A DNA stretch of 64,000 bases, from contig CAIIXF020000001.1 in NCBI GenBank assembly GCA_903813345.2, positions 4,650,001 through 4,714,000 of the forward strand, given 5' to 3'. The notes beneath the pieces were generated by a model. It did no database searches and had not been told where the DNA came from. It saw only the letters and a program-made list of their open reading frames with translations. Position 1 is the stretch's first letter, and each line of letters opens with the position of its first letter. The translations under genes were made by a program, and so were the position numbers. Positions 15,069-63,420 of this stretch are shown here, piece by piece. The DNA is from Owenia fusiformis (taxonomy: Eukaryota).

Positions 15069-15077
15069 GCACAAAAA

Positions 15078-18000
15078 ATGTCTAAAAGGGAAAAAAGAAA
15101 AGATGAGGAGTATAGAACAGTTGAGCGTCAAAATGAGAAGACATTGAAGAAAAAGAAGAGAGAAAATGAAGAGTATAGAACAAGTGAACGAGAAACTCAA
15201 AAGAAGATCATCAAAAAGAAGAGAAAAAATGAAGAGTATAGAACAAGTGAACGAGAAACTCAAAAGAAGTTTAACAAAAGAAAGAGAGAGAACGAAGAGT
15301 ATAGAACAATGGAGCGTCAAAATGAGAAGACATTCAAGAAAAAGAAGAGAGAAAATGAAGAGTATAGAACAAGTGAACGAGAAATTCAAAAGAAGATCAT
15401 CAAAAAGAAGAGAGAAAATGAAGAGTATAGAACAAGTGAGCGAGAAATTCAAAAGAAGATCATCAAAAAGAAGAGAGAAAATGAAGAGTATAGAACAATT
15501 GAGCGAGAAATTCAAAAGAAGATCATCAAAAAGAAGAGAGAAAATGAAGAGTATAGAACAAGTGAACGAGAAACTCAATTGAAGTTTAACAAAAGAAAGA
15601 GAAAGAACGAAGAGTATAGAACAATGGAGCGTCAAAATGAAAAGACATTCAAGAAAAAGAAGAGAGAAAATGAAGAGTATAGAACAAGTGAGCGAGAAAT
15701 TGAAAAGAAGATCATCAAAAAGAAGAGAGAAAATGAAGAGTATAGAACAAGTGAGCGAAAAATTCAAAAGAAGATCATCAAAAAGAAGAGAGAAAATGAA
15801 GAGTATAGAACAAGTGAACGAGAAACTCAAAAGAAGTTTAACAAAAGAAAGAGAGAGAACGAAGAGTATAGAACAATGGAGCGTCAAAATGAGAAGACAT
15901 TCAAGAAAAAGAAGAGAGAAAATGAAGAGTATAGAACAAGTGAACGAGAAACTCAAAAGAAGTTTAACAAAAGAAAGAGAGAGAATGAAGAGTATAGAAC
16001 AAAGGAGCGTCAAAATGAGAAAACGTTCAAGAAAAAGAAGAGAGAAAATGAAGAATATAGAACAGAACAACAACAGGCTCGAAAAAAACGTATGCAGGCT
16101 AAAGATATCCACCAGATCATCAAGGACTTTCAGAAAAAGATTTCTCATGGTCCTGAATATGTATGTTACAGTTGCAATCAACTTTTCTACCGACATTCGG
16201 TAGTAACAAATAGGACTGACTCTGAGAACAACTGGGTTTGTAATACATGTAATGCATATTTGAAGAAAGGTAAAATTCCACCGTGCTCCATCAATAATGG
16301 GATGGGATTTCCCCATGTTCCTGAACCTGTCAAAGATTTAACACCTCTTGAGTGGAGACTTCTGTCACCTAGGCTGGCTTTTATGAAACTGCGAGCAGGA
16401 CCAAGTGGTGGCCAAAAAAAGTTGTTAGGTAATGTTGTTAATATTCCCTGTGATGTGGCAGACACCGTAGCTTCTCTTCCAAGATTACATACTGATACAC
16501 AAACAATACATTTGAGGTTGAAAAGGAACCTTAAATATAAAAGTTTCGTTAGCTCTGAAAATGTAAGACCAGAAAAAGTAAGACATTGTGCATCTATCCT
16601 GACAAAAGCACCTCTATATAATTCTCTTGGTGTCAAGGTAGATGCTGCATGGTCATACCAAGACCCTCACGATGAATCTGCTGCGAATGAAACAGATGAA
16701 AATGAAACTGAAATAAGGTCATCTAAACATATCATAAGCAGCAGTGATCAAAATAAAACTGATATAAGTGGCTCCTCTGAAATTATTCCAAGTGACAATG
16801 ATCCAAACAACAACCTTCAAAAGGAAAACACTGATGAAGATGTTTGGGAGGAAGAATGTACTAACACAAGTCAAGGGTCAGAAGACACAATGTTGACAGC
16901 ACCTGACTTCATAGAACCAACTGAAAGAGATTATGTGTACAACATAGCACCTGGCCAGCATAGTACTCCTGTAAGCATATTTCAGGACATTTATTCTGAG
17001 GAACTAGCATTTCCTGATATATTTATTGGAAATGCTAGACCTTCAGAAAGGAAGGTCAACGTTCATTATAGTGACATAGTGAAATCAGAGCTTCGTAATG
17101 TTGACAGAAGAGCTGCCAGCAATGTTGAAAATATATTTTTCAAGGTAAAGAAACTCCAAATGAAGCAGTTGATTGACAAAACTAATATTGCAGTCAGGAA
17201 ATTCAAGAAAGGAACCATCACAGCTGGAAGGGCAAAAGATCCAGAACAAATGAAAAATTTTGTAAGTCAAGATAAAGGCTACAAAGTGCTCTCAACAATA
17301 CGAGGCTCTCCACCATACTTTCAAAAAGCACATAAGGATTTGTTAGCTATGCTACGATATCTTGGGCCACCAACCTTATTTGTCACACTCTCTGCTGCAG
17401 AAACACGTTGGAACCATCTTCTGAAAATTCTGAAGAAAACTGTTGACAAAGAAGATGTGTCTGATGAATACATTGACAACCTAACTTGGAATGAGAAGTG
17501 CCGTTTGATTCAGAGTGACCCGGTCACTTGTTCTCGACACTTTGATTATCAATTTACAGTACTCATCAATGATGTACTAAAATCTAGTGCATGTCCTCTT
17601 GGAGTCCTTTCTGACTACTTTTGGCGAAATGAATTCCAGCAACGTGGATCAGTCCATAGTCATGGTTTAATGTGGTTCAGAGATGCCCCAAAGCTGCCAC
17701 TGAACCCTGTTGCTGAAGACATTGCTGAAATTTTACAATATGTAGATGCCAACATAACATGTAGTATGCCCAGCGAGGAAGAGGACCATGAGCTTGCAGA
17801 TTTGGTTAAACTCCAGTTGCATCGCCACTCACACACATGCAGAAAAGGTGGTAGAGCTGAATGTCGTTTTGGATATCCCCTTCCTCCAATGCGCACAATT
17901 CAGCTATTAGAACCACTAGATGAAGATGAACCTGATTTGGAAAAACACAAAACAAACTGGAAGTCAATTCATAAAATATTAGTGGACATGAAATATGGAG

Positions 18001-21000
18001 AAGATATCAGTTTTGATGAATTTCTCAAGAAGATTGATATGACTGAGACAAACTACATCCTCGCTGTTAGGTCAAACTTAAAGAGAAAAGACATATTTCT
18101 GAAACGGTCCCCTAATGAAATTCGAATAAATGCATACATTCCATTCCTAACTAAATTGTGGAGAGCAAATTCGGATGCTAAGTTTTGCCTTGACCCTTAC
18201 GCGATAGCTATGTACATATCATCTTATATCCTCAAAGACCAAAAAGGCATGAGTGAAATACTGAAATCCTGCTGCGATGAGATAATTCAGGGTTCTAAGT
18301 CCTTGAAAGAGCAGTTGAGAATAATTGGAAGTAAATTTGTGAACACAGTAGAAATATGTGCACAAGAAGCTTGTTACTTAGCACTACAATTACCTTTGAA
18401 AAGAGCATCCAGACAAGTGAAATTTGTGAATACAAGTGAATCTGAAAAGAGAGTTGTTCTTCTTAAACCTACACACATGTTAGAGAAGATGGAAGATGAT
18501 GATGAAGATGTTAACATTAAAGATCAAGTTACAAAGTACACTGAACGTCCAAAGTCCCTTGAGCACACTTCTTTCGCAGAGTTCAATGCTTACTATGACA
18601 TCAGATCATCAATGAAAATGGAAGAGAAAAATGATGATGAACCTGATTTGGATGACAATGTAGCAGATGCTGTCACTAAAGATGTTCTAAGGAGAAAAAC
18701 TCCATACATATTGAGAACAGTGCATTTTAACAGAGACAATGACCCAGAGAATCACTTTAGAGAGATGATAATGTTATATACAGCTTGGAGAAATGAAGCT
18801 TCTTTAATTGGGCATTGTAAGACATTTCAAGAAAGATTTGATCAGGTCAAAGAATCTGTTCTCTTGGAAAAAGCAAAATTTGAACCATATACAGACTTGC
18901 TTGATGAAGCCATTGATGCTGCACAAAATGATAATATTCAAACTGAATATAATGATTTTTCCCCATCTACTCAAGCAGAGAGTTTGAATGATGCTCAAAA
19001 AGAAAAAGAAATCCTTGAAAAACTTCAGGATGATATCCCTCAATTTGAATATAATTTCACAGATGCTCCTAACATCGAAGAACAACTGAAACTCTCAAAG
19101 GAGATGCAAGATGAAGATTATAGAATGCTAATGCGTTCATTGACACAAAGACAGATGGAATACCTGAATGAAATCGTCAACCATATCAAGACAACTGACG
19201 AACCAATCTACAGATTCCTTAGTGGAGGAGCGGGAGTTGGGAAAACCTTGGTCACTAAAGCAGTTTTTCAAACTCTTCTGAAATTTTTCAACAAGAGATT
19301 GACTCAAAACCCTGAATCATTGTATGTTTTACTCGCAGCACCAACTGGAAAAGCAGCATTCCTGATTGAGGGTAACACACTCCATACTGCTTTTAAAATT
19401 CCTATCAATCAACAGGGATATATAAACCTTACGAATGACCAGAGAAATACTTTACAGGTAAAGTTACAGGATCTGAAACTAGTGATTATTGATGAAATAT
19501 CAATGGTTGGAACTAATCTGTTTCATTACGTCCAAACAAGACTTCAGGAAATAACAGGTAGTTCTAAAGATTTTGGTGGTGTATCGGTACTCACTGTTGG
19601 AGATTTTGGTCAGTTGCAACCAGTTTTCGATAAATACATATTTGAATCAGCAAAAAGTGGATATGCAGTTCTTGCAAAGAACTATTGGGAAAAATTCAAA
19701 CTGATGGAACTGACAGAAGTCATTCGCCAACAAGATACAAAGTTTGCTGAATCACTTAATCGCTTAAGAGTGGGACAGCATACCAAAGATGATATAAATC
19801 TGTTCAAAACTAGACTTGTTACAAACGATGCTGAATGTCCTACAGATGTTCCATATCTTTTTCTTTCAAATGCAAAGGTTGACTCACACAATGAGAAAGT
19901 TTTCCTCCAGTCAAAAGGAGAGAAGTGTCAGTTTCTTGCCAAAGACAGTATTGTTGGTGCTATATCACCTGAAATTAAAGACAGAATCTTGAACTCTATT
20001 CCAAATGACCCCAAGAAAACAATGCAACTTGCAACCAATCTTCAGGTAGCCACTGGGCTGCAGTATGACATATCTGTCAATATCGATGTGGAAGATGGAT
20101 TGACTAATGGGACTACTTGTGAACTTAAAAGCTTTATTCACAACAAGACAACAGGCACAGGAATATGCTGGGTCAAATTCAATGACTCAAAAGTGGGCAG
20201 AAATGCCAGAAACAACAACAAGGGGTTAAAGGGCCAGCCAACAGAGAGTGGTTGCACTCCTATTCTACCAGTCAGTCGGCAGTTTAGAGTTGGGAAGTAT
20301 AAGTCCTGCAGTGTCATGCGTAAACAAATTCCCCTTAGACCAGCATCAGCAAAAACTGTATGGCGTTCACAAGGGGACACGATGGATCGAGCTGTGATAG
20401 ACCTAAGTGGAAAAACAACACCACATGTTTATTATGTTGCTCTCAGCAGAGTGAGATCTTTAGAGAACTTATATCTCATAAATTTTGATGAGAAAAAAAT
20501 CAAAGTTAGTGAAGATGTATTACAGGAAATGTCCAGATTAAGAGGTGAAACTGAACTGACATACAAAGGCATTCTTTCTCAAAACTCCAACATGATAATC
20601 ACATATCTGAATGTACAGAGCCTACATGCACATATAAGTGATGTTCGAGCACATACAGCATTATTATCTTCGCATGTGCTTCTTTTAAGCGAGACTCGCT
20701 TACTCCCAACGGACACTGACATTGGCATTGCAGAATATAGTGAATTTCATAACATGGCATTTTCCCAAAGTGACAAAAATCGCCCATATTATGGGACAAG
20801 CATATATCACAAAACCAATAATGATACACACAGTGTTTCATCAAACAACATGAATGGCATAGAGGTTACTATCATCACAGTTATCCACAGTGGCAGCCTT
20901 ATTGGTGTTTGCGGAGTGTACAAACCACCTAAATGTAGTGTTCATTTGTTAACATCTGCTATGGAAAATGCACTAAACAGAAGCAAGCAAATCAAGAACT

Positions 21001-21230
21001 GGATCATCTTGGGTGATATGAATACAAACATTAATGAAACAGGTTACCACATGCTACTGGAAGCTATGGAGAGGATTGGCTTTAAACACTGTCAAACATC
21101 TTGCACCACTGATGGAAGAACAACAATTGACCATATTTTCACAAAACTGCCACTATCTCTAGAATTTGTTGTAGGGACAGAGGAGGTATATTATTCATAT
21201 CACAAAGCAATATGGTTGTCATTCAAATGA
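15078..21230 (+). CDS. Helentron Rep-helicase-endonuclease protein (2050 aa)
   Basis: Zn finger CYSC..CNTC. HUH Rep motifs GPPTLFVTLS, EFQQRGSVHSHGLMW, YISSYILK. PIF1 helicase motifs GGAGVGKT, IIDEISMV, GDFGQLQPV, RSQG, YVALSRV. C-terminal EEP/APE-like domain LNVQSL, LSETRL, VYKPP, GDMN, IDHIF, YSYH. Confidence 0.95.
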   Translation: MSKREKRKDEEYRTVERQNEKTLKKKKRENEEYRTSERETQKKIIKKKRKNEEYRTSERETQKKFNKRKRENEEYRTMERQNEKTFKKKKRENEEYRTSEREIQKKIIKKKRENEEYRTSEREIQKKIIKKKRENEEYRTIEREIQKKIIKKKRENEEYRTSERETQLKFNKRKRKNEEYRTMERQNEKTFKKKKRENEEYRTSEREIEKKIIKKKRENEEYRTSERKIQKKIIKKKRENEEYRTSERETQKKFNKRKRENEEYRTMERQNEKTFKKKKRENEEYRTSERETQKKFNKRKRENEEYRTKERQNEKTFKKKKRENEEYRTEQQQARKKRMQAKDIHQIIKDFQKKISHGPEYVCYSCNQLFYRHSVVTNRTDSENNWVCNTCNAYLKKGKIPPCSINNGMGFPHVPEPVKDLTPLEWRLLSPRLAFMKLRAGPSGGQKKLLGNVVNIPCDVADTVASLPRLHTDTQTIHLRLKRNLKYKSFVSSENVRPEKVRHCASILTKAPLYNSLGVKVDAAWSYQDPHDESAANETDENETEIRSSKHIISSSDQNKTDISGSSEIIPSDNDPNNNLQKENTDEDVWEEECTNTSQGSEDTMLTAPDFIEPTERDYVYNIAPGQHSTPVSIFQDIYSEELAFPDIFIGNARPSERKVNVHYSDIVKSELRNVDRRAASNVENIFFKVKKLQMKQLIDKTNIAVRKFKKGTITAGRAKDPEQMKNFVSQDKGYKVLSTIRGSPPYFQKAHKDLLAMLRYLGPPTLFVTLSAAETRWNHLLKILKKTVDKEDVSDEYIDNLTWNEKCRLIQSDPVTCSRHFDYQFTVLINDVLKSSACPLGVLSDYFWRNEFQQRGSVHSHGLMWFRDAPKLPLNPVAEDIAEILQYVDANITCSMPSEEEDHELADLVKLQLHRHSHTCRKGGRAECRFGYPLPPMRTIQLLEPLDEDEPDLEKHKTNWKSIHKILVDMKYGEDISFDEFLKKIDMTETNYILAVRSNLKRKDIFLKRSPNEIRINAYIPFLTKLWRANSDAKFCLDPYAIAMYISSYILKDQKGMSEILKSCCDEIIQGSKSLKEQLRIIGSKFVNTVEICAQEACYLALQLPLKRASRQVKFVNTSESEKRVVLLKPTHMLEKMEDDDEDVNIKDQVTKYTERPKSLEHTSFAEFNAYYDIRSSMKMEEKNDDEPDLDDNVADAVTKDVLRRKTPYILRTVHFNRDNDPENHFREMIMLYTAWRNEASLIGHCKTFQERFDQVKESVLLEKAKFEPYTDLLDEAIDAAQNDNIQTEYNDFSPSTQAESLNDAQKEKEILEKLQDDIPQFEYNFTDAPNIEEQLKLSKEMQDEDYRMLMRSLTQRQMEYLNEIVNHIKTTDEPIYRFLSGGAGVGKTLVTKAVFQTLLKFFNKRLTQNPESLYVLLAAPTGKAAFLIEGNTLHTAFKIPINQQGYINLTNDQRNTLQVKLQDLKLVIIDEISMVGTNLFHYVQTRLQEITGSSKDFGGVSVLTVGDFGQLQPVFDKYIFESAKSGYAVLAKNYWEKFKLMELTEVIRQQDTKFAESLNRLRVGQHTKDDINLFKTRLVTNDAECPTDVPYLFLSNAKVDSHNEKVFLQSKGEKCQFLAKDSIVGAISPEIKDRILNSIPNDPKKTMQLATNLQVATGLQYDISVNIDVEDGLTNGTTCELKSFIHNKTTGTGICWVKFNDSKVGRNARNNNKGLKGQPTESGCTPILPVSRQFRVGKYKSCSVMRKQIPLRPASAKTVWRSQGDTMDRAVIDLSGKTTPHVYYVALSRVRSLENLYLINFDEKKIKVSEDVLQEMSRLRGETELTYKGILSQNSNMIITYLNVQSLHAHISDVRAHTALLSSHVLLLSETRLLPTDTDIGIAEYSEFHNMAFSQSDKNRPYYGTSIYHKTNNDTHSVSSNNMNGIEVTIITVIHSGSLIGVCGVYKPPKCSVHLLTSAMENALNRSKQIKNWIILGDMNTNINETGYHMLLEAMERIGFKHCQTSCTTDGRTTIDHIFTKLPLSLEFVVGTEEVYYSYHKAIWLSFK
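15100..16065 (+). repeat. 63-bp coding minisatellite (15 full 21-aa K/R/E-rich units)
   Basis: GAGTATAGAAC recurs every 63 nt from 15108; protein unit such as SERETQKKIIKKKRENEEYRT. Confidence 0.95.
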
Positions 21231-42557: not shown

Positions 42558-43073
42558 CAGGGGGGTGGTTGATGAGGGTGAGCCAAAAAGGTAACCCAAA
42601 CATGATTTAATAACCCAAATGTTGGGTTTAAATCACATTTGGGATTTTATTGAACCTTGTTCAATGTTCTTTCATTCTACTAAATTTCATCGGTCTATTC
42701 AACGGTCACGATTTTATGGGCATTTTACAAAACGTGCTCCAAATGCTGAAACCTGCCAAACGATTCACCTGTTATCTTTGTTGCTACTTATTTCAAAGAT
42801 GATGTCTACAGGAAGATGCCAGTCATGTGAGCGCGTAGTCACTAGTTAGAACAACTTCACCAGATGCGTTCAAGTTTGCCTCCAAAGACGAGATCGGTAT
42901 TTTGAGCATGTCTTGTAAAATGCTCATAAAATTATGACCGTTGTAATTAGACCAATGGAACTTGGTAGAATGAAAGAACAATAAACGAAGGAAATATGAC
43001 TTTGAACCCATAGTGAATGACTGAGTTACTAATATTTCTTTGGGTATGGGTTACATCGTTTTTGCCCACCCTG
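42558..43073. mobile_element. Old Tc1/mariner-type MITE with long imperfect inverted arms
   Basis: TA|CAGGG...CCCTG|TA; arms 42623-42745 and 42898-43010 are reverse complements. Confidence 0.6.
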
Positions 43074-44195
43074 TACATGGCATGAGTGACATAAACACAA
43101 ACAATTGAATTATTTATAATTTTATAACACATTTTTATTGCATAATTTTTCAATCCACAATTGCTATGAACACATGAAACAAAACTATCCAACATATAAA
43201 ACAGTATGTATTCAGTTGATTTTTGACTCTTAGAATATGAATATTCAAATACTAGAAGCAGTAATAGTATGCGGCGGCAAGTTCGTGCATTTGTGCTAGT
43301 ATTTTGTAAATGGCGAATTGGACTTCTCAGAGTTGTGATTGGCGTTGGAATGAAATCCTCGGGTATATACAGATGTAGGTTGAACAATTGCTTAGAAATG
43401 ATGATCATTTAAGCAGCATTCTATAATCTACAGTGTTGATTGTTGTTGTGACAGGCCAGTAAATGCAGTTATGTACAAAACTTACAAATGCTCGCACAAT
43501 TATATATTTACATCATACGAAACCATATAATTAGGACGCTTGTAGTCCAAATCACCTTTTCTGTATGTCAATCAAACTTAAAAATTAACTAATCGAAGGA
43601 CCACAACCGTGCAATATCATAAACAAAAATACATGCTTATTTTTCATATTATTTTCATTTGCTGTAAACATCGTGGCCTCCTGTGATTTAGGGAATTTTC
43701 GAAAATAAAAAAGGAAGCAGGAAAGCATCAAAATCCAAGATATAAAAAAGTTTTGAGATTAAAATTTGAATGCTTTTTCCATGTAATATTGCACCATGGT
43801 CCTTTGACTGGTTATATTTTGTTGACTGATGCACAGAACAAGTGGTTGGGGCACGTACTGAGATCAGTTCCAATACATTGAAATCCATTACTTACTGCTA
43901 TAATACAAGTAGTCGGGTTTATTTTATTTTCAAAGGCTTTCAAAAATCAAATAAATTCCGACTACGACAGATTTATATATTTTAAGCCATGGTCTACAAG
44001 ATGGAAGTTTAAATTTGAGATAATGTGGGGTAGTTCATAATCACCAAGGGTTATTTCAAATCTTGATGAAGCTTGGAACAAGCAAAGGGAACCATGTTTT
44101 TGTTGAATGACGTTAGTCCATGACTTCCATCGGCCGTGCCTTATTGCGGTGGATTACAAGAGGCATTGTCTGGTTTAGAAGTGACCACGAATACG

Positions 44196-45983
44196 CTATC
44201 CCCCCATAACTGGAGGTGTATCTTTCATAATAGCTCCATATACAACCCAATATACAATATTAAACAGCAGAAAACTACATGGAAATATTTTTCTTGAACG
44301 TTTATCTATCATTCGTGCTTTTCTTTTACCGTCCCAATCGGGCATTGTCGCTTTCATTTGTTTTGTACTATTTCCCGAGGATTCCTAAAATACAGAAAAC
44401 AGATATTCACCATACTTCGATCAGAAATCAATTCAAGACTGTAATGTGATGGTGATGGTAAACATATGGTAAAAGAGAAGGCCGACACGATAAGTTTCAA
44501 ATGCATATGCACATGTTAGCAATACTACAATATACAAACTATTCTAACGTACATCACCAGATCCCATATTGTCGGCCTTTCTGCTACCAATCATTCCGGC
44601 AAGTTGTTTTCTCCTCATCCTCATGTTCATGTTGAAGCTTGTACTCTGTGTCTGCTTCCGGGACATAACATTCACCACTGCATATTCCAATAGAGATGAG
44701 AATACAAAGATGAGGCATACGCTCATCCATACATCTATTGCCTTGATGTAGGAGACACGAGGCAAAGAGGATCTGGCTCCTGAACTTTGTGTGGTTGTTG
44801 TTAATACAGTCAACAAACCTTCAAGTAAAAGTTATATTAATGTGAATTCGTAAAAACCATTTGTCCAATATTTCAAACATTACCATTATTTAAGTAAGTA
44901 AATATTATATATTTGCAAAACAATTTAATGAGGACAATACATACATGTATACCAGAACTTTTGGGTATGACTGTTGCGAATGTCTGAATGAATGGAGGGT
45001 GTGTGAAAGTGATTTAATATTTTATCTTTGCCTTGTGTATTATTTCATGTTTGATTTAATAAAAAAATTATTTAAGAAAGTCATGTTTACAGAGAGTTCT
45101 TGCTCCAAAGCCCCGTACCTCATATTCCCCCGCTCTATGACAGAGAGGGTATGGGGTTACAAGGCCTCGAAGAAAAACTAAGCATAGAGCTACTCTATCG
45201 ATTAAGTAGACGTTATATACTTAATCAATTTATTTATGTGTGTATGTTCATGCTCTTGAAAGCCCATGGTTTCATCAAAATGTTGTTTCTAAGACTTTTT
45301 TAATTGTTCATTTGATTAGTGTTTTGAGATATTGTGCAGGAAAATACAATATTGATGCAATTCTCCTCCATGCTTTAACTGCCACATGCTTTTAAACATC
45401 ACATTGGAAATATGCAATACAGGTAAACGTATGTACCTATAGTGACTCTGGCTGGTACAGCATCAACATTAATCCAGAATCCAACCCAGGAGAGAATTAC
45501 AATGAGCCAACTGGGCATATAAATCTGAATTATGTAGTAGCCCAAGTCCCGCTTCAGTTCGAAGTTGATCTGGAGACAAGGATAAGCACCTAAAATAATG
45601 ACAGCATATTTATTTGTTGCGGACCAGTTTTACAATTGAACTCCATAAACTCTCTAATCGTGCATATGCAAGCTCGTATATGTGAATATGTTAATCATTT
45701 TCAGACACTGTTTCTTTGTACATTATTTGGGATATTTGAGATTTGTTTCCTTATACCCAGTCGTACTCTTAATATGGGTGTTTAAACAATCCCTTCCTAT
45801 CTGTGTTTATAATGCTTTTTTGTGAGAGTTGTGGTTACATATTTTCCCTACCCGTGCTATAGTTTTGTGAGCAGTCAATGAGATGGGATTTGATGAGACG
45901 AAACTGTGGCATCTCCAGATGATCCTCGGTTGCTACAGGGGTATCCCACCAATTAAAGTAAAGTGTGCTCTTGGTGTAACCAA
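44196..45983 (-). CDS. 3' cassette B (loop B to M4 and stop)
   Basis: Exons 45983-45852 ([18 protein letters not shown]), 45589-45437 ([14 protein letters not shown]), 44818-44553 ([12 protein letters not shown]3), 44384-44196 ([21 protein letters not shown]). AATAAA on the minus strand at 43923-43918. Confidence 0.92.
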
Positions 45984-48900
45984 CTACAAAAAAAATATTG
46001 TATGATAAAGATATATCTGAAATATTTATCAACATATATTTTAAATGGTAATCACTGCCTCTTTAAAGCTAATTTTGATTCTGTCGAGTGTCATCATTTA
46101 TTGAAATACAACATTACACATACATTTACTCCGATTTTAATGGTCAGGTTCATTGAGTTGCCTGATCACGAATCAATACATTGAAATATCTGATATCTTC
46201 TTACCTTCGTTTGTTGAGTATTTCCTCTAAAGTACAACACTAATATTTCATCACATGATACATCCGTACATTGGATAGTTAAAATCCCAAATATTATATA
46301 TTTTATTATTACTATGTATATTTATTTAAACATTCATACAAGTAATAATTTTAGTTGCATTCAATGAATGAAAATGATGTCTATAATGAAATAACATGAA
46401 TAAAACGAATGTTGTAATACTATGCAATATTATGATTGTTCTCAACTGAGCCATTTGTTTTGGGAGTATATGGAGAACAAGATGCATCAATTGAAAAAAT
46501 ATCTGCTGATACAAAGGTAACCGCAGCGTCAGATATTATGTACATGTTCTCTTTCAAGAAATTCTACATTATGTCTTATTTACAAATATGTACAATATTC
46601 CTTTCCTATATGAATGATTGGAAATAGTTTGAAGATATTGTACAGACATAACATCTATATATAAAATTGTCTGCAAGCAAAGTAATTAACCCCCCATAAC
46701 AGGGGGACTGTCTTGAATAATAACACCATAAACTATCCAATACACAGCATTAAATATTAAAAATGATGTTGGGAATATTCTCCGACACATTTTGTCAATC
46801 ATTCGTGCTCGAAATTTACCATCCAAATCAGGAATTTTAGGAGCATCTAAGAACTCATCATGGGACTCCTTTGTTTCACCATCCTAAAACAGAAATCCAA
46901 ACATCAACACTAATTGAAGTAGCGAATATTATTTTCAAAGATTGGTGGAGTTTTCATCGATATTGTGGAATTCCTACCTCGCTGTCGCTCCCTGAGCTCT
47001 TTTTCCTAAACCGAGAACGTGGTTTCGCTGGCTGAGCTCTCATGAATGGAAGAGGCATTTGTTTAGCCATAAGTGCTGGTGTGATGCTTCTCACTTGCTT
47101 CCTACTAAACACATTCACCACAGCAAACTCTAATAGAGATGCAAAAACAAACAGCAGACAAACACTCATCCAAACGTCTATGGCCTTGACATAAGATACC
47201 CTGGGCAGGGAAGATCTGGCTCCAGAGCTCTGGGTGGTCGTGGTCAATACGGTCAGTAAACCAATAGACACACGAGCAGGAATGGCGTCTACACTAATCC
47301 AGAACGCCACCCAGCTTAGGATGACAATGAGGATGCTTGGAACGTAGATCTGAATGATATAGTAGCCTAAATCCCGCTTCAATTGGAAATTCACTTGCAG
47401 ACAAGGATAGGCACCTGAAACAAAAACCACCACGCCATTTTGCTACACAATCATCTTCATTTACAACAAATAGAAGCCACAAAGGAAAACTACATGAAGC
47501 TGAATATACTTTCATTGAACATACCAGTAGTGTAGTTTTGTGAGCAATCTATTAGTTCTTCGTTGATAAGCCTGTACTGAGGCATCTCGAGATTTTTCTC
47601 TTTATCGACAGGGTTGTCCCACCAACTGAAGTAAACTGTATCCATTGTGTACCCAACTGTAAAAGCAAACAACCAATATACATGTGCAATACATCTAAGG
47701 CGTTATTTCTATCCTATCGCAAGTTACACAATCCGAACACATCATGGTTAAAGTACTACAGTGATTTACTTTATTGATCATTGACGTGCAATGCTTTTGC
47801 TATGGACGACAACATATTTTGACATTACACGTGAGACAGTGGGATTTGACGTTGCACTGGTGACATCGAGTTTTTGACATAGTACATGTGACATAGGGGG
47901 TAGCTACTGATAAAAACATGTTTGGCGCATGATGGATTGGCCAGACACCTGATGAAATCTAATGAGCTTTCTGCGCTAGATAGTGAGGAAAAGATAGATA
48001 TAGGCAGACTTACAAGCATGCAGACGGCACTGCAGCATGCACAAAGAAACAACGAAGTATTAGTAAATAGAATAACTGTAAAAGTTTTACATTCTTATAC
48101 CATTACCATAAAGTTAGCTTAAGAGACGTACAGATTTTAGCAAAGGATTCTAAGAGAATAATTATGATTATAGCTAGCATATGGTTTCACTATGGTTCTA
48201 ATTTGGGTATTTTTAAAATTTAAATAAACATAAAAAAGAGCAAAATAAATTATGAAGTTTACGTACCGTAACGCTGCGCGCAAATTTTGATTTTCAACCC
48301 CTTCACACATCTTTGGACTTTATAAATCGTCATCTTTTATATCATCTTCCTAAACTTAGACCCAAATCAGTCTTTCAAATTGTTTACATTTTGTGAGATG
48401 ACATGCAGTGCTTGTTCTGTCAATACACATAATGCATATGAAACAAATCTAACTGGGCTATCAAAGTGCTGAAACCAGTTCATGGTCGGGTGTTAATGTG
48501 AAGGGGTTCATGAACAGTCGGAGTTGTATACTGTGAGATAAATGCAGAGAGGTTTGCAAACCGCCCATTGCATCTTGCATATCTTGGGCTCCAGGGGCGA
48601 TACCTAGTGCAGCACAAAGATGTGAGTGTGTGTACAGTAACTCGTGGTAGACAGGTGAAGATAAGCCTGGATATAAGACAGTGACAGGCGCGAGATTTAC
48701 ACACAGGTGGATGCTAGTCTAAAGTACGCACAATGCTGATGTTAGTAGAGACATACATATGGTTTGGCACACCTAACTGGACGATACTCCTAACAATAAA
48801 CCTGCTCTAATAGATATAGGTTGTTAGTAGAAATACAGAGTGTCCATAAAGTCTCTACAATTACAATACAAAATTCTGTGTAAGGTGTAAAGGGACATAA

Positions 48901-51900
48901 TGGACACCCTGTATATTCAGAGAGAATAGTGCTAAGATATAGGTCCAACGCAAAGGAGTCAGCAGTTAATCCTTGCTTCGATTTATTGCCATGATAATCC
49001 TTAGCATATCTGAATTAGTTGGTATATCACTTTAGTTAAGCATGCATTTCATTGCAAGTGCACATTAGGTTAGTTTTAGTAAGTATAACAATGTGCAAAA
49101 CACACTTTAACATACGCTTGCAATCAGTGCATTAGTCACACCATCTGACTGTTTTATTTGGTGTTTTGTTATAAATAAGCAACTGAGTTCCTTGATTCAA
49201 TTGTTGTTTTGCCCATCGGCTCTTGGAAGAAAAGACAATTATTTTCTAATTATATCAAGCGATAGCATTTGCTAGATTTTAACACTGCATAAACTACTTT
49301 TTCAATAAATGATGACACCTCACTAAGATTTAGACTGTGTTATTTAATCAGTATCATATATGAAGCAAAATGTGTAATAAAGAAGTTAATATTTGTAGTA
49401 TAGATAGACTATGTCAAATCAATTTAAGGCATTATTATGAAAGATCGATTCTTCTTTTGTAAATTAGGAAAATTGCACTTACAACTCTCTATCATGATGG
49501 GACAGAACTGTGTGTCCATGGGATATTTTGCCAGGTTCATCGGACACGACAATGTAACAGTCAATCTGGAAAACAGTTTCATGATTCAATACCTTTAAAT
49601 CAATTATGTTGTATAAATCAAAAAACAGTTTCTTGCAGCCTTCAACTTCCGGCAAATTATAATGTATTAGTTTTCAATTCTGGGAGGTTCTTTGCAACTA
49701 TAGTGTTACAATACTCACATCTCATTTTGTGGATTTGCAATTTATCGTTTTTTTGATTAACAGCGGCAACGTATCCAACCAAGATTTCTCTTGTATAAAC
49801 TACTGAATTATACTTTCTTGTTGTTAATGACATAAACTAGTTTAAGACTCTGGATCTGTGCTATCTATCTTAAAGATCAATACGATATACAGCTTTTCAG
49901 TTACTGGAACTCTTTAATGGTGTTATATGGCCATTTCTTATGATCTATAATGCAACAGATAATGATCCATGTCACAAATATCACTCTAAAATACTCAGCA
50001 ATGTTATTCAGGAATAAAAAAACTCATAACCCTTCATATTTGAACAGTAAAATATATTAAGTGTCCAAACTATTGTCTGTTAAGGATCATTTTAAACAGT
50101 TGATCCAATAAATTGATATTAGTGTCTGATATATTATGACTGGTGTACTTCCTAAGAGTTGATATATAATGTTAGTGTTATAAATGTATATAAGTAATGA
50201 CATTGCACTCACTTCATTGCATACCATATTTTGCCATCGTCATATAATCTCATTAAACGATTGGGTATTGTGACGTCATGAAATGCTGCTTTCTTTTCAT
50301 TTCTAAATGTGGTGTCAGGTACCCAAAGCTGACTCCACATCCCATCAGCCAGTTTTATCATACCCGATTCACCCTTTTTCCTTTTGTCCTTTTTAGCTAA
50401 TCGTGGCTCATACCATGTTTGACGAAAGTATATGTTCACCGAATAATCCTGTAATTAGAAAAAGGAATATTTATGTACAAGTAGCCTACATCTATAGTAA
50501 GGTTATACTTACTCAGTTTTGAATTCTTCATATTTACATTCACAAAAGTTATTAAAAAAATTACCACAAAGTGTGAATGACTGCACTAAAATGATGATGG
50601 ACCCATTGCTTTTCTTCTGGCATTATTTTGGAGTGACACCTATCCCACTTATTGTCATTTAGCTCAAGTGACAGATAATCGACCTTTTTGTGTATAGAAA
50701 CTAAGTGTTCATGTTATCTCATTTTCAAGAAAGGATAGCTCAAATTAAACCTGTGGATTTCAATGACACTTAATGCCTCAGTCAAATTTGCTACAGCAAC
50801 CGTAGTCCTAAACGAAACAGTTATAACTCCAGATTATAATATTTCACAGCGAACATACGGCCTGTAAAAATGGGATGCACGACATGGCGACAGACGATTT
50901 GTATAGTCGCCAATCGATCGTGGTCTACAATCGTCGTGTGGTCGCCATAGAACGAATGTGACTTAGGCGTAAATATTCACCCTTGATGTTTCCCTCTAAT
51001 ATTCAAGAAAATGCCAAAGACGTGATATTTAGGGCCCCTTGGCCTAGAATTGACCATATAATGAACTGTACGCAGTCTTCAATTTTGAGAGGGGGGCTTC
51101 CTTGCTCTTTCGTGTTATGAAAAATATGTTGTCTGAAGAGGATAAGTGAACTAGATAAAATCTAATCAATAATTCTTATTGCATGAATATATAGTTAATC
51201 ACATGTCTTATTGTACCAGGTTGTTAGAATTCAATAGTCTATTGTTATCAAATGGGAATTAGATATGCCACTAAGAATTCTTAACATGGTTTTTCGTTTA
51301 TACATGTATATCATGATCGATTTCTATGCACTTGTAGATCTTTATCTGATAATAGTGTTTGATAACAAACTGACAAAACAATGATTTTTTACTTTTAGTA
51401 GTATGTGTAGGACCGGAATATACGTACACTTACCATTGTTTGCTCACTGATTGAATAAAATGTGTTTATATATATTCCTATTTTGACTTCTGTTGGATCA
51501 GACCCATGTGGGGAGTCCCTTTTGTCATACTTAATGTCCTTTCCTCGAATCTTTATCGTCCTAAAGCACAATATAGCATTTGATTATAAAAACTATTCAT
51601 TATACATGAAATATTGCTTCATTAGTTGATATTGTACATCAAATTTGGATACTATTTTACACTATTAAAAACAAATAAAATGTTCAGGAAAATTATGATA
51701 ATAAATTTAAAAGATATAATAAAAATATAAGAAGCATCTAAAATAAACTAACATATAGAGAGCAGAAAAGGACAAAGTGAAATAGCAAAGTGTGAAGAAT
51801 CATTTTGAACAAAATAGACGGATGAAGGGAAGTGTAAACTCGGAAAACAAACGTATGTATTATATAAATAGAACTATTGGATTTGAATTGTGTGTTAGGA

Positions 51901-53748
51901 ACATTCTCTTGGAAACTATTGTTTGATCATTCAAAAATCATAACACAATTAAAGTGCAACATGCAACCAAAGAGTAAACATTATACACACTTTCTTGACA
52001 CAAACGTTCTCATCTAGAAAAGAATTGGACAGATACATTTGTAAAATGCACATACATATCACGACCAGGTACTATAAGTGATATGGGCATTCAGCATACC
52101 TGTAAAAACGTGATAAATGATGATGTTCACTAAAAGGAAATATTAGATCAACACGTCAAAAATGACGCCATGCTACATGAGTCCCGGGTGAGTGGCGTGC
52201 AATGATGTTCCAATCTAAAGGGCCTCCAACTACAAACATACCTAGCTTTTTCAACTCTAGGATCATCGCTGCATTAATATAAACATAATCCATAATATTG
52301 TCAAAGATTATATCAGGTACCTCTATTATTTAACACATCCACAATTTCCGTAAAATGTCCTGTAAACAGGGATGCCAAGGATAAGTATTTGTGAAGGGTA
52401 GAGGTGAAAATCAATTTTGTTAAACTGCAGGCAAAACCTATATTAGTATTTTTAATGTATAGATAAGAGGAAGCCGGCACGCGTTTCATAAAGCAAAGCG
52501 TTGGATAGGTATATTGGTATATTTGAGCGCGCTAAAGCTGTGTTTCCTGCTACCTTTCTCCAAGCCAATTAGGCTTAGGCCTACGGCCTCGGGAACCCTT
52601 CCTCCTCTTTACAGTTACATTTCTACAATATAAAAAAGTATTGTGAACAGTTTGAGAAATATACCAAGCGGATCTCAAACATAATAGGATCCATGAATTG
52701 ATTATATGAATCCGGATCCAAAAAATCCAATCCGAGGTTTATTCACGACCAACCTTAAAACGGAGTATCACAAACATGAATCAGATTACATAGTACAAGT
52801 TATTAGTTGGTTGAACTATTAAAATTTAAATTGTTAGGTGAACAATAGCATGCTTTTTAAAAGGATTGCTTCAAACATGTTCTTTATTATTTTGCTGCAA
52901 TATTACGTTTACCTGTAAAGTACAAAAGATTTTATTGAATGATGGAGTCAATAATGTCAATCAATATTTGCAAATATTTGCAATCTTAACATTTTCAACG
53001 TTTTTTGAAAGCGACAATGTATATCACTGGAATTAAGTATGTGCATTTTGGAATTTAGGACTAAGGCAAAATTGGAAATAAAAGAATGAATATAAGCCAA
53101 CAGTCTCCACGCACGATCTGACTCAAAGTTCAAGATACACAGAGCCGACGATAGACCATTATCTTATTCCTAAATTGCCATATTTGAACCAAGGGACAAG
53201 GAAATATTGACAAGGAAACGTCATATTTAAGAGAATGGAGTTTGCATTAATTTATGTTAATCCCAAGTTGAACATTACCATAGTTACCAGTCAGTAAACA
53301 GCTGTTTTATTACTTTTCAAAATCGTATATTTTATTCTCAATGAGGCACAATTGTGCGATTAAGAAAAATAACGACTTAAATATATTTTAATCTTGTCAG
53401 GAAAAAGTTCACGATTTTTATTTAGTATTACATAATTGTATATCATTTATTCCAGAGGGATAAATCATAGAAAGATTCGCCATCGGCTCTTCCGATTTAT
53501 CAGAGACACATAATATTTATATGTCTCTGGATTTATGTATGTCAGGATGAGAATGATAAATATATATAATAACTAGGTCTCCTTTTTCTAGATAGAGTGC
53601 TTATAATCACCCCGTTATTTATTTTTATTATGAAAATGGATGCATGAACTTACCGATCTCCTCCCCTTGCATCTAGATCTTTGGCGTAAATAGCCAATGT
53701 TTCTATGACAACCAGAAGCAGGATGTATATGTCAGTTTCAATCCACAT
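44196..53748 (-). CDS. GlyR/GluCl-like anion-selective Cys-loop (pentameric ligand-gated) channel gene with two alternative 3' cassettes
   Basis: Shared exons plus cassette A give 435 aa; shared exons plus cassette B give 426 aa (each +9 aa if the microexon is used). Cys-loop [15 protein letters not shown], second disulphide in loop C, PAR motif, four TM helices. Confidence 0.92.
46686..47656 (-). CDS. 3' cassette A (loop B to M4 and stop)
   Basis: Exons 47656-47525 ([18 protein letters not shown]), 47414-46978 (AYPCL..M1, [21 protein letters not shown]3, loop), 46883-46686 ([21 protein letters not shown]). AATAAA on the minus strand at 46326-46321 and 46307-46302. Confidence 0.92.
48836..48911. 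mobile_element. Tiny Tc1/mariner-type MITE
   Basis: TA|CAGAGTGTCCAT...ATGGACACCCTG|TA. Confidence 0.6.
49483..53748 (-). CDS. Shared 5' exons of the Cys-loop receptor (signal peptide to Cys-loop)
   Basis: 53748-53654 ([23 protein letters not shown]..., least certain), optional 52268-52242, 51560-51434 ([28 protein letters not shown]), 50448-50213 ([32 protein letters not shown]), 49565-49483 ([27 protein letters not shown], phase-1 exit). Confidence 0.88.
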
Positions 53749-55230
53749 GTCAAAGTGTAGTCATCCCCTCAGTTCACATCATCGCCTACAAGCACATAAT
53801 GTACCCCACTAAATTAATGGAAAAATCGGACATTTTCTCGTGACTCGTGTCTCTGGGCGACTTTCCTTTTAATTTTGTGACAGGTTATAAAAGTGTGGAA
53901 TGATTAACTTTTGAACTAGCTCATAAATATTGCATCCCTGCTTACATTGTTCAGTCAGATTGATTGCACACGTTTACACGTCCTTTATCGTCATTTGACA
54001 CATAATATTGCCTGCTGATACGGTGACTGACACTGTGGTTATTTTGGTAATTTGCAGTAAATGCTAAGTTACAATATACTTTACCATCACCCTTATTCAA
54101 GAAAATGCTTATTCATCAACTCCTATAGAAAAGTCACCATTAGCTCAGCAAATTGGCAAGAAGAGTCTTAATGAACTATCTTGTCCTATATTGTAGCTAG
54201 ACAAGATTTACTATTTAATTCCCTTAAATATTTCTTTCATCACGCACTTCAATTTCACGTTTAAAACTGTACTCCGGCTCAATGTACAGAAACTGTCATA
54301 ACATCCTCATATTCAGCCAAGAGTAACCCATGTCAGTGTTCCCCTAATATACCTTATCCACTTACATGTACATTCTCTGTTATTTGCCGTAACCTGGTAT
54401 GATAGAGATATAATTACAGTAACTTATAGTGAAGCTTCTTATCGACTTTGCTTTTTATAGTCTAGCTAGGCATATGAGAAGTAAGTCGTTTGTTTAATCG
54501 GCGTGCTTGTCTCCGGATGCATTTGGAAACGTTGACAAGCTAATTCCAGAGATTTACAACTTGTTACTTGAACGCCAATTCTTAATCCAGTATGGACCAG
54601 TGTATGCATTCTGATATTGTTGATGGAACTCTACCTTAATAGCCAACAATAACCTTCAATGGCAACTAAATGTTATAAGTTAAATAAGAATCTGAATTAA
54701 CAGAACCCTATGTATTGAATTCAGTCTTTTACATTCACTTGTCATAGAGTTTCATTGTGGGAACTAACTCTTTGGAGTTTATTTGCATTTGTGTAGAATT
54801 ACTCTTTTTTCTGTAATGTAAATAAAATTTGTTTGAATAAATATTGTCATTAACAAATGTATTGAGATAAGGTTCGTCTTACGGTTCACCATGTGGAATG
54901 CTTAACCAGATTTTGTATAGAATTCCAATTTGTAAACTATTACTTATATGCTGAATAATTTTGTTATCCCTCAAAAGCAATTTTGTATCATGGCACAGAT
55001 GCCCTTCTAAATCAATAATTAATTGATTTAGATTAAGAGATTAGTACAATTTTATTGTCCTTATTGTACATTTAAAATAAGAAGAAGACTGTTTTATTCA
55101 CAGCGGTCTGAAAATGTTCGAAGGACTGGTGAGCCTCAAAGGTTAATCTTTATTTGAATTTACTTATTCCCTCAGATTCCCCAAATTCTTTATAATAGAA
55201 GTTAAGTTACATTTATATATAAATGATTTA

Positions 55231-62820: not shown

Positions 62821-63420
62821 ATTGTTCGAGTCTCCATTTCAATTGAATTTTGAACTGATGAAATTATAAATAATAGGTCAAATATTATTCGTTGTTTGAG
62901 TCTCCATTTACATTTGAATTTTGAACTGATGAAATTAAACATAATGGGTCAAATATTATTTGTTGTTTGAGTCTCCATTTACACTTGAATTTTGAACTGA
63001 TGAAATTATACATCATAATGGGTCAAATATTATTCGATGTTTGAGTCTCCATTTACATTTGAATTTTGAATGAGTCTCCATTTACATTTGAATTTTGAAC
63101 TGATGAAATTATAAATAATAGGTCAAATATTATTCGTTGTTTGAGTCTCCATTTACATTTGAAATTTGAACTGATGAAATTAAACATAATCGGTCAAATA
63201 TTATTCGTTGTTTGAGTTTCCATTTACATTTGAATTTTGAACTGATGAAATTACAAATAATGGGTCAAATATTATTCGTTGTTTGAGTCTTCATTTACAT
63301 TTGAATCTTGAACTGATGAAATAACCCATTTGGGTTATCTATCTTACATTTGAATTTTGAACTGATGAAGTTATACATTGGGTCAAATATTATTCGCTGT
63401 TTGAATCTTCCTTTACATTA
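62821..63420. repeat. ~71-bp minisatellite, about 8 copies plus a 29-bp partial unit
   Basis: GAGTCTCCATTTACATTTGAATTTTGAACTGATGAAATTA...GTCAAATATTATTCGTTGTTT repeated from 62828. Confidence 0.9.

Follow-up and report, generated by a model that had tools for sequence, protein, structure and literature searches.

A 64-kb stretch of the genome of the annelid Owenia fusiformis (the window, in which all positions below are counted) carries on its minus strand a Cys-loop receptor gene of compound structure. A single set of 5' exons serves the whole locus and is followed by two tandem 3' cassettes, A and B, each with its own transmembrane segments M1 to M4, stop codon and polyadenylation signal. 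At the level of assembled contigs, each cassette is spliced to a donor that the two have in common. We consider it very likely that this is one gene yielding two receptor subunits through the choice between two 3'-terminal cassettes.

Structure of the locus

The window has ~35% G+C and contains no N. Exons were joined in silico on the minus strand, giving reading frames of 435 amino acids for the A form and 426 amino acids for the B form with no internal stops, and all 10 introns of the receptor gene, in the shared part and in both cassettes, are GT-AG. The shared coding part consists of 53748-53654, 51560-51434, 50448-50213, and 49565-49483. The first of these starts with the ATG at 53748, encodes a signal-peptide-like N terminus and ends in phase 2, the complete exon with its leader spanning 53654-53785. 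The second (51434-51560, from YDKR to SEQTM) holds β1 and the loop G region of the ligand-binding domain (LBD), the third (50213-50448) holds loops D, A, and E, with loop A reading TTFRNEK, and the fourth (49483-49565) holds the Cys-loop, C-x13-C. This last exon closes with GAG AGT T in phase 1, and its donor at 49483 is the fork between the two forms.

Each cassette opens with a 132-nucleotide exon beginning TTGG(G/T)TAC, which completes the split Phe codon of ES-F-GYT and encodes loop B (FGYT), loop F, and loop C as far as NYTTG in A (47525-47656) or NYSTG in B (45852-45983). In cassette A, one exon, the second (46978-47414), takes in the last part of loop C, M1 to M3, and the beginning of the intracellular loop, and the third (46686-46883) contains the remaining intracellular loop, M4, a tail ending in PPVMGG, and the stop codon TAA. 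Cassette B continues with three exons: 45437-45589 (end of loop C, M1, and the PAR motif), 44553-44818 (M2, M3, and the beginning of the intracellular loop), and 44196-44384 (the remaining loop, M4, the PPVMGG tail, and the stop codon TAG). The intron preceding the second of these (45436-44819) has no equivalent in cassette A.

Stop A and acceptor B are 702 nucleotides apart. AATAAA occurs at 46326, 46307, and 46102 downstream of stop A and at 43928 and 43139 downstream of stop B. The 3' untranslated region of A occupies 46270-46685, with signals at 46326-46321 and 46307-46302, and is followed by the remaining A-B spacer (45984-46269); that of B occupies 43550-44195 when taken to the farthest contig end, with a signal at 43928-43923. 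The layout had been proposed earlier from the letters alone, and its elements are borne out by exon joining, domain matches, signal positions, and the searches described below. These elements are the single LBD exon set with its phase-1 end at 49483; M1-M4, a stop codon, and AATAAA in cassette A (47656-46686) and again in cassette B (45983-44196); the phase-1 opening exons of 132 nucleotides in both; and a spacer of ~700 bp that holds no Cys-loop exon.

A single ligand-binding half

When both isoforms were compared with the whole 64-kb window by tblastn, the matches were the exons listed above and one noise match with an E value of 0.5. The N-terminal halves of 79 homologues were made into a profile, which was run, with all filters off, on every six-frame fragment of the window. 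The profile gave three significant pieces, all of them known shared exons (E values of 4.5e-10 for 51434-51560, 1.2e-34 for 50213-50448, and 3.9e-12 for 49483-49565), and everything else had an E value above 1. Neither tblastn nor the family profile found a second set of LBD exons in the 64 kb, and the overlooked 5' exons for cassette B that the original prediction had named as its own weak point did not come to light.

Splicing of both cassettes to the common donor

Transcript material for positions 43000-55000 came from the contigs of three runs from three studies (X8, X14, and X7) and from the raw reads of a fourth run, X18; the run search had listed 20 runs. The ends of all listed contig joints are CT..AC on the plus strand, equivalent to GT..AG for the gene, and lie at the predicted exon borders. 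The join 49483→47656 into cassette A is present in all three contig runs (with a side of 83 letters in X8 and of 26 letters in X14 and X7), and the join 49483→45983 into cassette B in two of the three, X14 and X7. Both junctions had been proposed as the ones to look for. In the shared part, 53654→51560 is found in X8, X14, and four raw X18 reads, and contig joints also bound the exon at 51434-51560. All five internal cassette introns are spliced out in 3/3 contig runs, with zero depth in most intron bins. The joints flanking the second exon of A (47412/47523 and 46882/46977) occur in all three, and contigs likewise cover the third exon of A and the second, third, and fourth exons of B.

The way in which the contigs break is informative. 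In X14 and X7, the A and B contigs both break after exactly 26 letters of the shared exon. The contigs are those of a 31-mer assembly graph, and this position is expected because the cassettes share TTGG and then differ at the fifth letter (31 - 4 - 1 = 26), so the break marks a fork in the graph with both joins present in one run. A second difference between A and B, at the 11th letter, means that a path into B cannot be produced by one sequencing error in an A read. Contig depths for A and B are 10.5 versus 10.4 in X14 and 22.3 versus 39.1 in X7, although contig depth is a poor measure of expression.

At the 3' end, A contigs terminate at 46269 in X7 and at 46379 in X14, beside the AATAAA at 46326-46321 and in agreement with a predicted end near 46300, and the rest of the A-B spacer is without coverage in these two runs. 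The predicted end of B near 43900 fared less well, with contigs extending to 43817 (X7), 43718 (X14), and 43550 (X8). X8 further contains a contig of 3294 letters that reads exons 2-3-4-6A-7A-8A, crosses stop A, the spacer, and exon 6B unbroken (46882 to 45850), and from there takes in the B exons in spliced form as far as 43550. Such a contig looks like the result of transcription that read through the poly(A) site of A, or of a path that the graph took through pre-mRNA.

Several points weigh against taking these contigs as two mature transcripts of one gene. The direct join 49483→45983 was not seen in X8, and some of the signal on B exons can stem from read-through transcripts that leave B untranslated. 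The fork joins were read from assembled contigs, not from counted reads, and their short side of 26 letters in X14 and X7 is below the 31 advised for bridging. The contig runs are tagged as RNA by guess only, their RNA nature being deduced from splicing and empty introns. In raw run X18, ~6% of the run gave 58 reads, four at the join of exons 1 and 2 and none at the fork, most of them lying on intron repeats near 48830-48871 and 44900. Finally, the runs may include the source data of the public annotation, in which case the B join would not be independent of that annotation.

Two intronic segments, 48828-48872 and 44900-45010, are matched in part by contigs and reads that continue into unrelated sequence, and they behave like expressed pieces of interspersed repeats. 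At the 5' end of the gene, an untranslated exon lies at 54366-54589. It is covered by an X8 contig (54365-54589) that has a joint to 53784/53785 (CT..AC on the plus strand); gtaag follows 54366 and ag precedes 53785. In the first coding exon, the leader contains, at 53783-53775 on the minus strand, a two-codon upstream open frame, ATGATGTGA, 27 nucleotides 5' of the start codon. Two optional in-frame exons, both bounded by ag and gt, were observed between coding exons one and two, directly after the signal peptide, each in a different run. One of 69 nucleotides (23 amino acids; 52554-52622) appears in X8 with joints 51559→52553 and 52622→53654 and is also part of the annotated isoform P0003. 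The other, a microexon of 27 nucleotides (9 amino acids; 52242-52268), appears in X7 with joints 51559→52241 and 52268→53654 and is not in the three public isoforms. Combined with the two cassettes, these exons would allow up to six protein forms.

Public annotation

The public protein P0001 (CAH1772521.1, 426 amino acids) is isoform B letter for letter, and exon 50448-50213 is 100% identical to it. P0003 (449 amino acids) is B with the 23-amino-acid insert, and P0004 (353 amino acids) is B with a shorter N terminus. All three public isoforms therefore use cassette B, and the B join is already part of the public models. No cassette-A protein was found among Owenia proteins: with the M1-M3 exon of A as the query, 427 relatives of 253 to 2000 amino acids were recovered and no Owenia sequence among them exceeded 85% identity. 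A query with the shared exon returned the Owenia cluster and one nemertean protein only (two matches among nine candidates). As far as these searches reach, cassette A is missing from public gene models. Receptor inventories and expression atlases built on the current annotation would consequently miss one subunit, and reads from the shared exons would be assigned to B alone.

Divergence and selection

Over 244 aligned codons, cassettes A and B agree at 168/244 residues (69%) in protein and show 65% identity in DNA. The proportion of differences at synonymous sites (pS) is 0.80, which is saturated, and that at nonsynonymous sites (pN) is 0.22; we give these two values because saturation makes the ratio of the corresponding substitution rates (dN/dS) not computable. 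Saturated pS together with low pN means that two frames of ~250 codons were kept open and conserved over a very long time. At the level of aligned codons, this demonstrates long-term purifying selection on both cassettes, as had been proposed from their synonymous divergence and freedom from stops.

The differences are unevenly distributed. pN is 0.117 in M1-M3 and 0.585 in the intracellular loop, which is almost unalignable, and the differences cluster there and in the loop-F stretch, M1, and M3. Loop B (FGYT) is the same in A and B, loop C differs by one Thr/Ser, the aligned M2 stretch and the PAR motif are the same but for one Ser/Thr just after PAR, and the C-terminal tail ending in PPVMGG is common to both. 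The original prediction held that the cassettes swap binding loops B, F, and C, the pore, and the intracellular loop. The claim does not hold for the pore, where M2 shows that one Ser/Thr, and it is overstated for loops B and C, which are nearly identical. Judged by these conserved parts, A and B would be expected to share the same agonist and the same conductance, and the comparison points to a difference in gating, modulation, targeting, anchoring, or intracellular partners.

Receptor class and predicted ligand

Judged from its domains and motifs, the gene is an anion-selective Cys-loop receptor like the glycine receptors (GlyR) and glutamate-gated chloride channels (GluCl). Pfam places Neur_chan_LBD (PF02931) in exon 50448-50213 (E value of 1.7e-12, 47.7 bits against a cut-off of 26) and Neur_chan_memb (PF02932) in each cassette, with E values of 2e-32 for A (46978-47414) and of 3.2e-09 and 2.2e-18 for B (45437-45589 and 44553-44818); the full-length P0001 has both domains. 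The best solved relatives are GlyR alpha-3, alpha-2, and alpha-1 (E value of ~1e-108), and the last exons, which bear M4, align with each other and with GlyR alpha-3. Both cassettes have PARV(S/T) before M2 and DCSQNY(T/S)TGAYPC in loop C, and the GlyR alpha-3 alignment shows the same PARV and C...C. The sequence P-A-R before M2 is an anion-selectivity motif, and a second Cys pair in loop C is a feature of GlyR and GluCl.

The agonist is probably glutamate, since the loop-A arginine known from lophotrochozoan GluCls is present in the shared half. Loop A is TTFRNEK in Owenia versus FFANEK in GlyR alpha-3, FRNEK is found in a protein named Aplysia gluClAc2, and, with the position matched by alignment, the arginine is common to most of the lophotrochozoan clade of the Owenia receptor. 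Lynagh et al. 2015 (PMC4338433) describe this residue as the glutamate determinant of lophotrochozoan GluCls and note annelid subunits with the motif. FRQ in loop D, FGYT in loop B, and NY(T/S)TGAY in loop C are also present; they are common to GlyR and γ-aminobutyric acid (GABA) receptors and do not discriminate between ligands. It counts against the assignment to glutamate that it rests on a single motif.

Origin of the cassette pair

Two trees were computed, one of 64 rows and 164 columns for the region from loop B to M3 (tree 1) and one of 13 rows and 258 columns for the whole cassette (tree 2). A and B are sisters in both, with supports of 99/94 and 96/93, respectively, and together with the Owenia paralogue P0022 they form an Owenia-only clade (100/90 and 98/98), next to which other annelids stand in tree 1. 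P0022 lies on the same chromosome, hundreds of accessions away. The branch lengths of A and B are 0.17 versus 0.39 in tree 1 and 0.27 versus 0.37 in tree 2. Two results temper the sister relationship: whole-cassette identities are equal for A-B, A-P0022, and B-P0022 (0.69 to 0.70), and forcing A to group with P0022 costs 10.4 log-likelihood units with a p value in the approximately unbiased test of 0.051. We therefore favor the sisterhood of A and B without regarding it as proven, and the equal identities mean that the split between A and B is almost as old as the split from P0022.

The three cassettes of a Parastrongyloides model fall in the 64-row tree into a separate clade with an insect sequence, and the Owenia cassettes are accordingly not orthologous to the nematode loci. 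That the pair arose inside the Owenia lineage is shown by these trees, within the sequences sampled, and they support a separate, convergent origin of a design that is the same as that of the nematode loci. The independent evolution that had been surmised for the locus finds its basis here.

Two proposed subunits from one gene and the alternatives

In the mechanism that we propose, transcription would start upstream of 54589 and the shared exons would supply the signal peptide together with the LBD's first half (loops G, D, A, and E plus the Cys-loop). Splicing of donor 49483 to the proximal acceptor 47656 would give a transcript ending at the A poly(A) signal near 46320 and subunit A, of 435 amino acids. 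Splicing to the distal acceptor 45983 would remove cassette A within a 3.5-kb intron and give subunit B, of 426 amino acids. Either cassette would provide loops B, F, and C, M1-M4, the intracellular loop, and the PPVMGG tail. Splicing to A, with polyadenylation at that cassette, may compete with a skip to B, and this would set the choice.

The alternative that survives best, though we think it improbable, is that only one cassette yields a working subunit and that the other is a relic that is still spliced or serves as 3' untranslated exons of read-through transcripts. The X8 contig, which reads from A through the spacer into the B exons in a run that lacks the direct B join, is what such transcripts would look like, and the public annotation contains B forms only. 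There is also a precedent for an unused cassette in nematodes, as UNC-49A is described in PMC11296113 as barely detectable in Caenorhabditis elegans. However, both cassettes have kept ~245 to 255 codons open at a pS of 0.80 and a pN of 0.22, both direct joins occur in X14 and X7 at similar contig depths, and in both trees it is the unannotated cassette, A, whose branch is shorter.

Less probable still is that the locus consists of two separate genes, with B having its own promoter or its own overlooked 5' exons. Tandem arrays are common in this receptor family, and some long predicted proteins elsewhere are fused neighbors (P0014 and P0019), but the 64 kb hold no second LBD exon set by tblastn or family profile, the A-B spacer measures just 702 nucleotides, and the shared Cys-loop exon is spliced straight to B in the X14 and X7 contigs as well as in the public models. 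An artefact of assembly, in the genome between 45983 and 46686 or in the transcript contigs, is just as improbable: 31-mer graph contigs can be chimeric, and a contig across two genes proves no single transcript, but the X8 contig, from another data set, spans 45850-46882 unbroken with two other letters and one gap and so confirms the genomic order of A and B where the original prediction had feared a misassembly, the same joins recur across runs of three studies, the B join matches a public protein exactly, and the junction path requires 31-mers that combine two B-specific letters with 20 letters of the shared exon.

Comparison with known systems

The original prediction named the same architecture for nematode unc-49 and avr-14, and PMC11296113 and PMC8841521 describe alternative products of this kind for the two genes. 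In unc-49, a common N terminus is spliced to three downstream parts to give UNC-49A/B/C, of which UNC-49B and UNC-49C form homomers and heteromers (PMC11296113). Owenia resembles this gene in having one promoter, a common N-terminal half, and alternative complete C-terminal parts. A Strongyloides papillosus read-through model of 1064 amino acids (P0018, named GABA receptor subunit beta in its source), which is taken to be an unc-49 orthologue, allows the forks to be compared. Its similarity to the Owenia receptor restarts three times, at IES|YGYD, SIS|DGYT, and ILN|AYTT, within one residue of the Owenia fork ES|FGYT just past the Cys-loop, and each of its cassettes, as in Owenia, has loops B, F, and C and M1-M4. 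The two systems differ in that Owenia has two cassettes and unc-49 three. The Owenia gene also belongs to another subfamily, with GlyR alpha as the closest solved relatives and a lophotrochozoan loop-A arginine, and is not orthologous, the nematode cassettes clustering with an insect sequence. UNC-49B/C heteromers are documented, and an A/B heteromer in Owenia is hypothetical.

The gene avr-14 (gbr-2, GluCl alpha-3) too gives two subunits by splicing, and it encodes a glutamate-gated anion channel, the ligand class that we predict for Owenia. AVR-14A and AVR-14B have their N-terminal part in common, and what sets them apart is the C-terminal channel and intracellular region (PMC8841521). Ecdysozoan GluCls have a loop-G arginine (PMC4338433), unlike the Owenia receptor, which has the loop-A arginine and, read by eye, an Asn at the loop-G place. 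The two designs also differ in where the fork lies. Laughton and colleagues are said to have reported in 1997 that avr-14 shares the whole LBD and swaps the channel part only; if so, the Owenia fork is earlier, inside the LBD.

The closest non-Owenia protein to the shared exon, at 69% identity, belongs to a homologue in the nemertean Lineus longissimus with RefSeq isoforms X1-X10. These isoforms have three versions of the segment FG(Y/H)T...NYSTG, which corresponds to the 132-nucleotide first cassette exon of Owenia, and two versions of the Cys-loop segment. In Lineus, however, single exons alternate upstream of one M1-M4 and one 3' end, whereas Owenia has two copies of the entire 3' half, stop codon and poly(A) signal included. 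The Lineus isoforms (P0002 and P0005-P0013) also include small N-terminal and loop variants, and isoforms of this one gene are named both "alpha-2-like" and "beta-like." Insect RDL and GluCl are further cases in which mutually exclusive LBD exons diversify a single anion-channel gene; those exons are internal with one 3' end, unlike the complete terminal cassettes of Owenia.

Judged by these alignments, the same intron is used for diversification in three phyla, and full downstream duplication is confined to nematodes and Owenia. Among 131 proteins collected, no pairs with an identical N-terminal half and different complete C-terminal halves were found, the only alternatives being of single exons (Lineus, and Owenia P0028/P0030/P0031). 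Likewise, we found no report of a shared N terminus with multiple C termini in annelids or molluscs in the main texts of open-access papers and bioRxiv. The design has so far been treated as a nematode peculiarity, known from unc-49 and avr-14. A convergent annelid case at the same intron suggests a general route to subunit diversity, and possibly to heteromers, from one promoter, and it offers a second system, far from nematodes, in which the purpose of the design can be tested.

A broader proposal, which we put forward tentatively and regard as rather less likely than not to hold in full, is that the intron after the Cys-loop is a recurrent fork in anion Cys-loop receptors, with everything downstream duplicated independently in nematodes and in an early-branching annelid and only the next exon in a nemertean, and that the Owenia A and B subunits are co-expressed in the same cells and co-assemble as a heteromeric glutamate-gated chloride channel. 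The single observation bearing on the heteromer is that the A and B forms occur in the same two runs, X14 and X7. If the proposal were true, one locus would encode a complete heteromer whose subunits share half the binding site and the pore and differ in their intracellular loops, that is, in anchoring or regulation.

Other loci and features of the window

A siboglinid, Ridgeia piscesae, was considered as a further locus with a shared 5' half. Its protein P0015 (409 amino acids) starts within the Cys-loop segment, lacks an LBD, and has two transmembrane cassettes, and its accession adjoins that of a complete subunit, P0033. We rejected this candidate as more likely a truncated or fused prediction, the first cassette of P0015 being orthologous to Lamellibrachia P0062, which has its own LBD. 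That LBD differs from the one in P0033; P0062 is 57% identical to P0033 overall and has no recognizable M4. Two or three consecutive M1-M3-like stretches are present in P0036, P0037, and P0049 of the rotifer Rotaria and in P0016 of the psyllid Diaphorina citri, and these models could be concatenated alternative exons or cassettes or else prediction artefacts. In Owenia itself, P0028, P0030, and P0031 (CAH1772225-27, neighboring accessions) are a mosaic of identical blocks (the first 239, the first 198, and the last 232 residues), a pattern that fits alternative exons at one and the same region in a further paralogue.

Elsewhere in the window, an open frame of 2053 codons on the plus strand (15069-21230) contains DUF6570, Helitron_like_N, a PIF1-like helicase, and a C-terminal endonuclease/exonuclease/phosphatase domain, and it looks like an apparently intact transposon gene of the Helitron type. 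Its first part includes, at 15096-16064, 15 copies of a 63-nucleotide (21-amino-acid) tandem repeat rich in Glu, Lys, and Arg, which accounts for the strong AT skew of that segment. A tandem array of a 71-nucleotide repeat, with ~7 copies matching at 92 to 93%, lies at 62822-63322.

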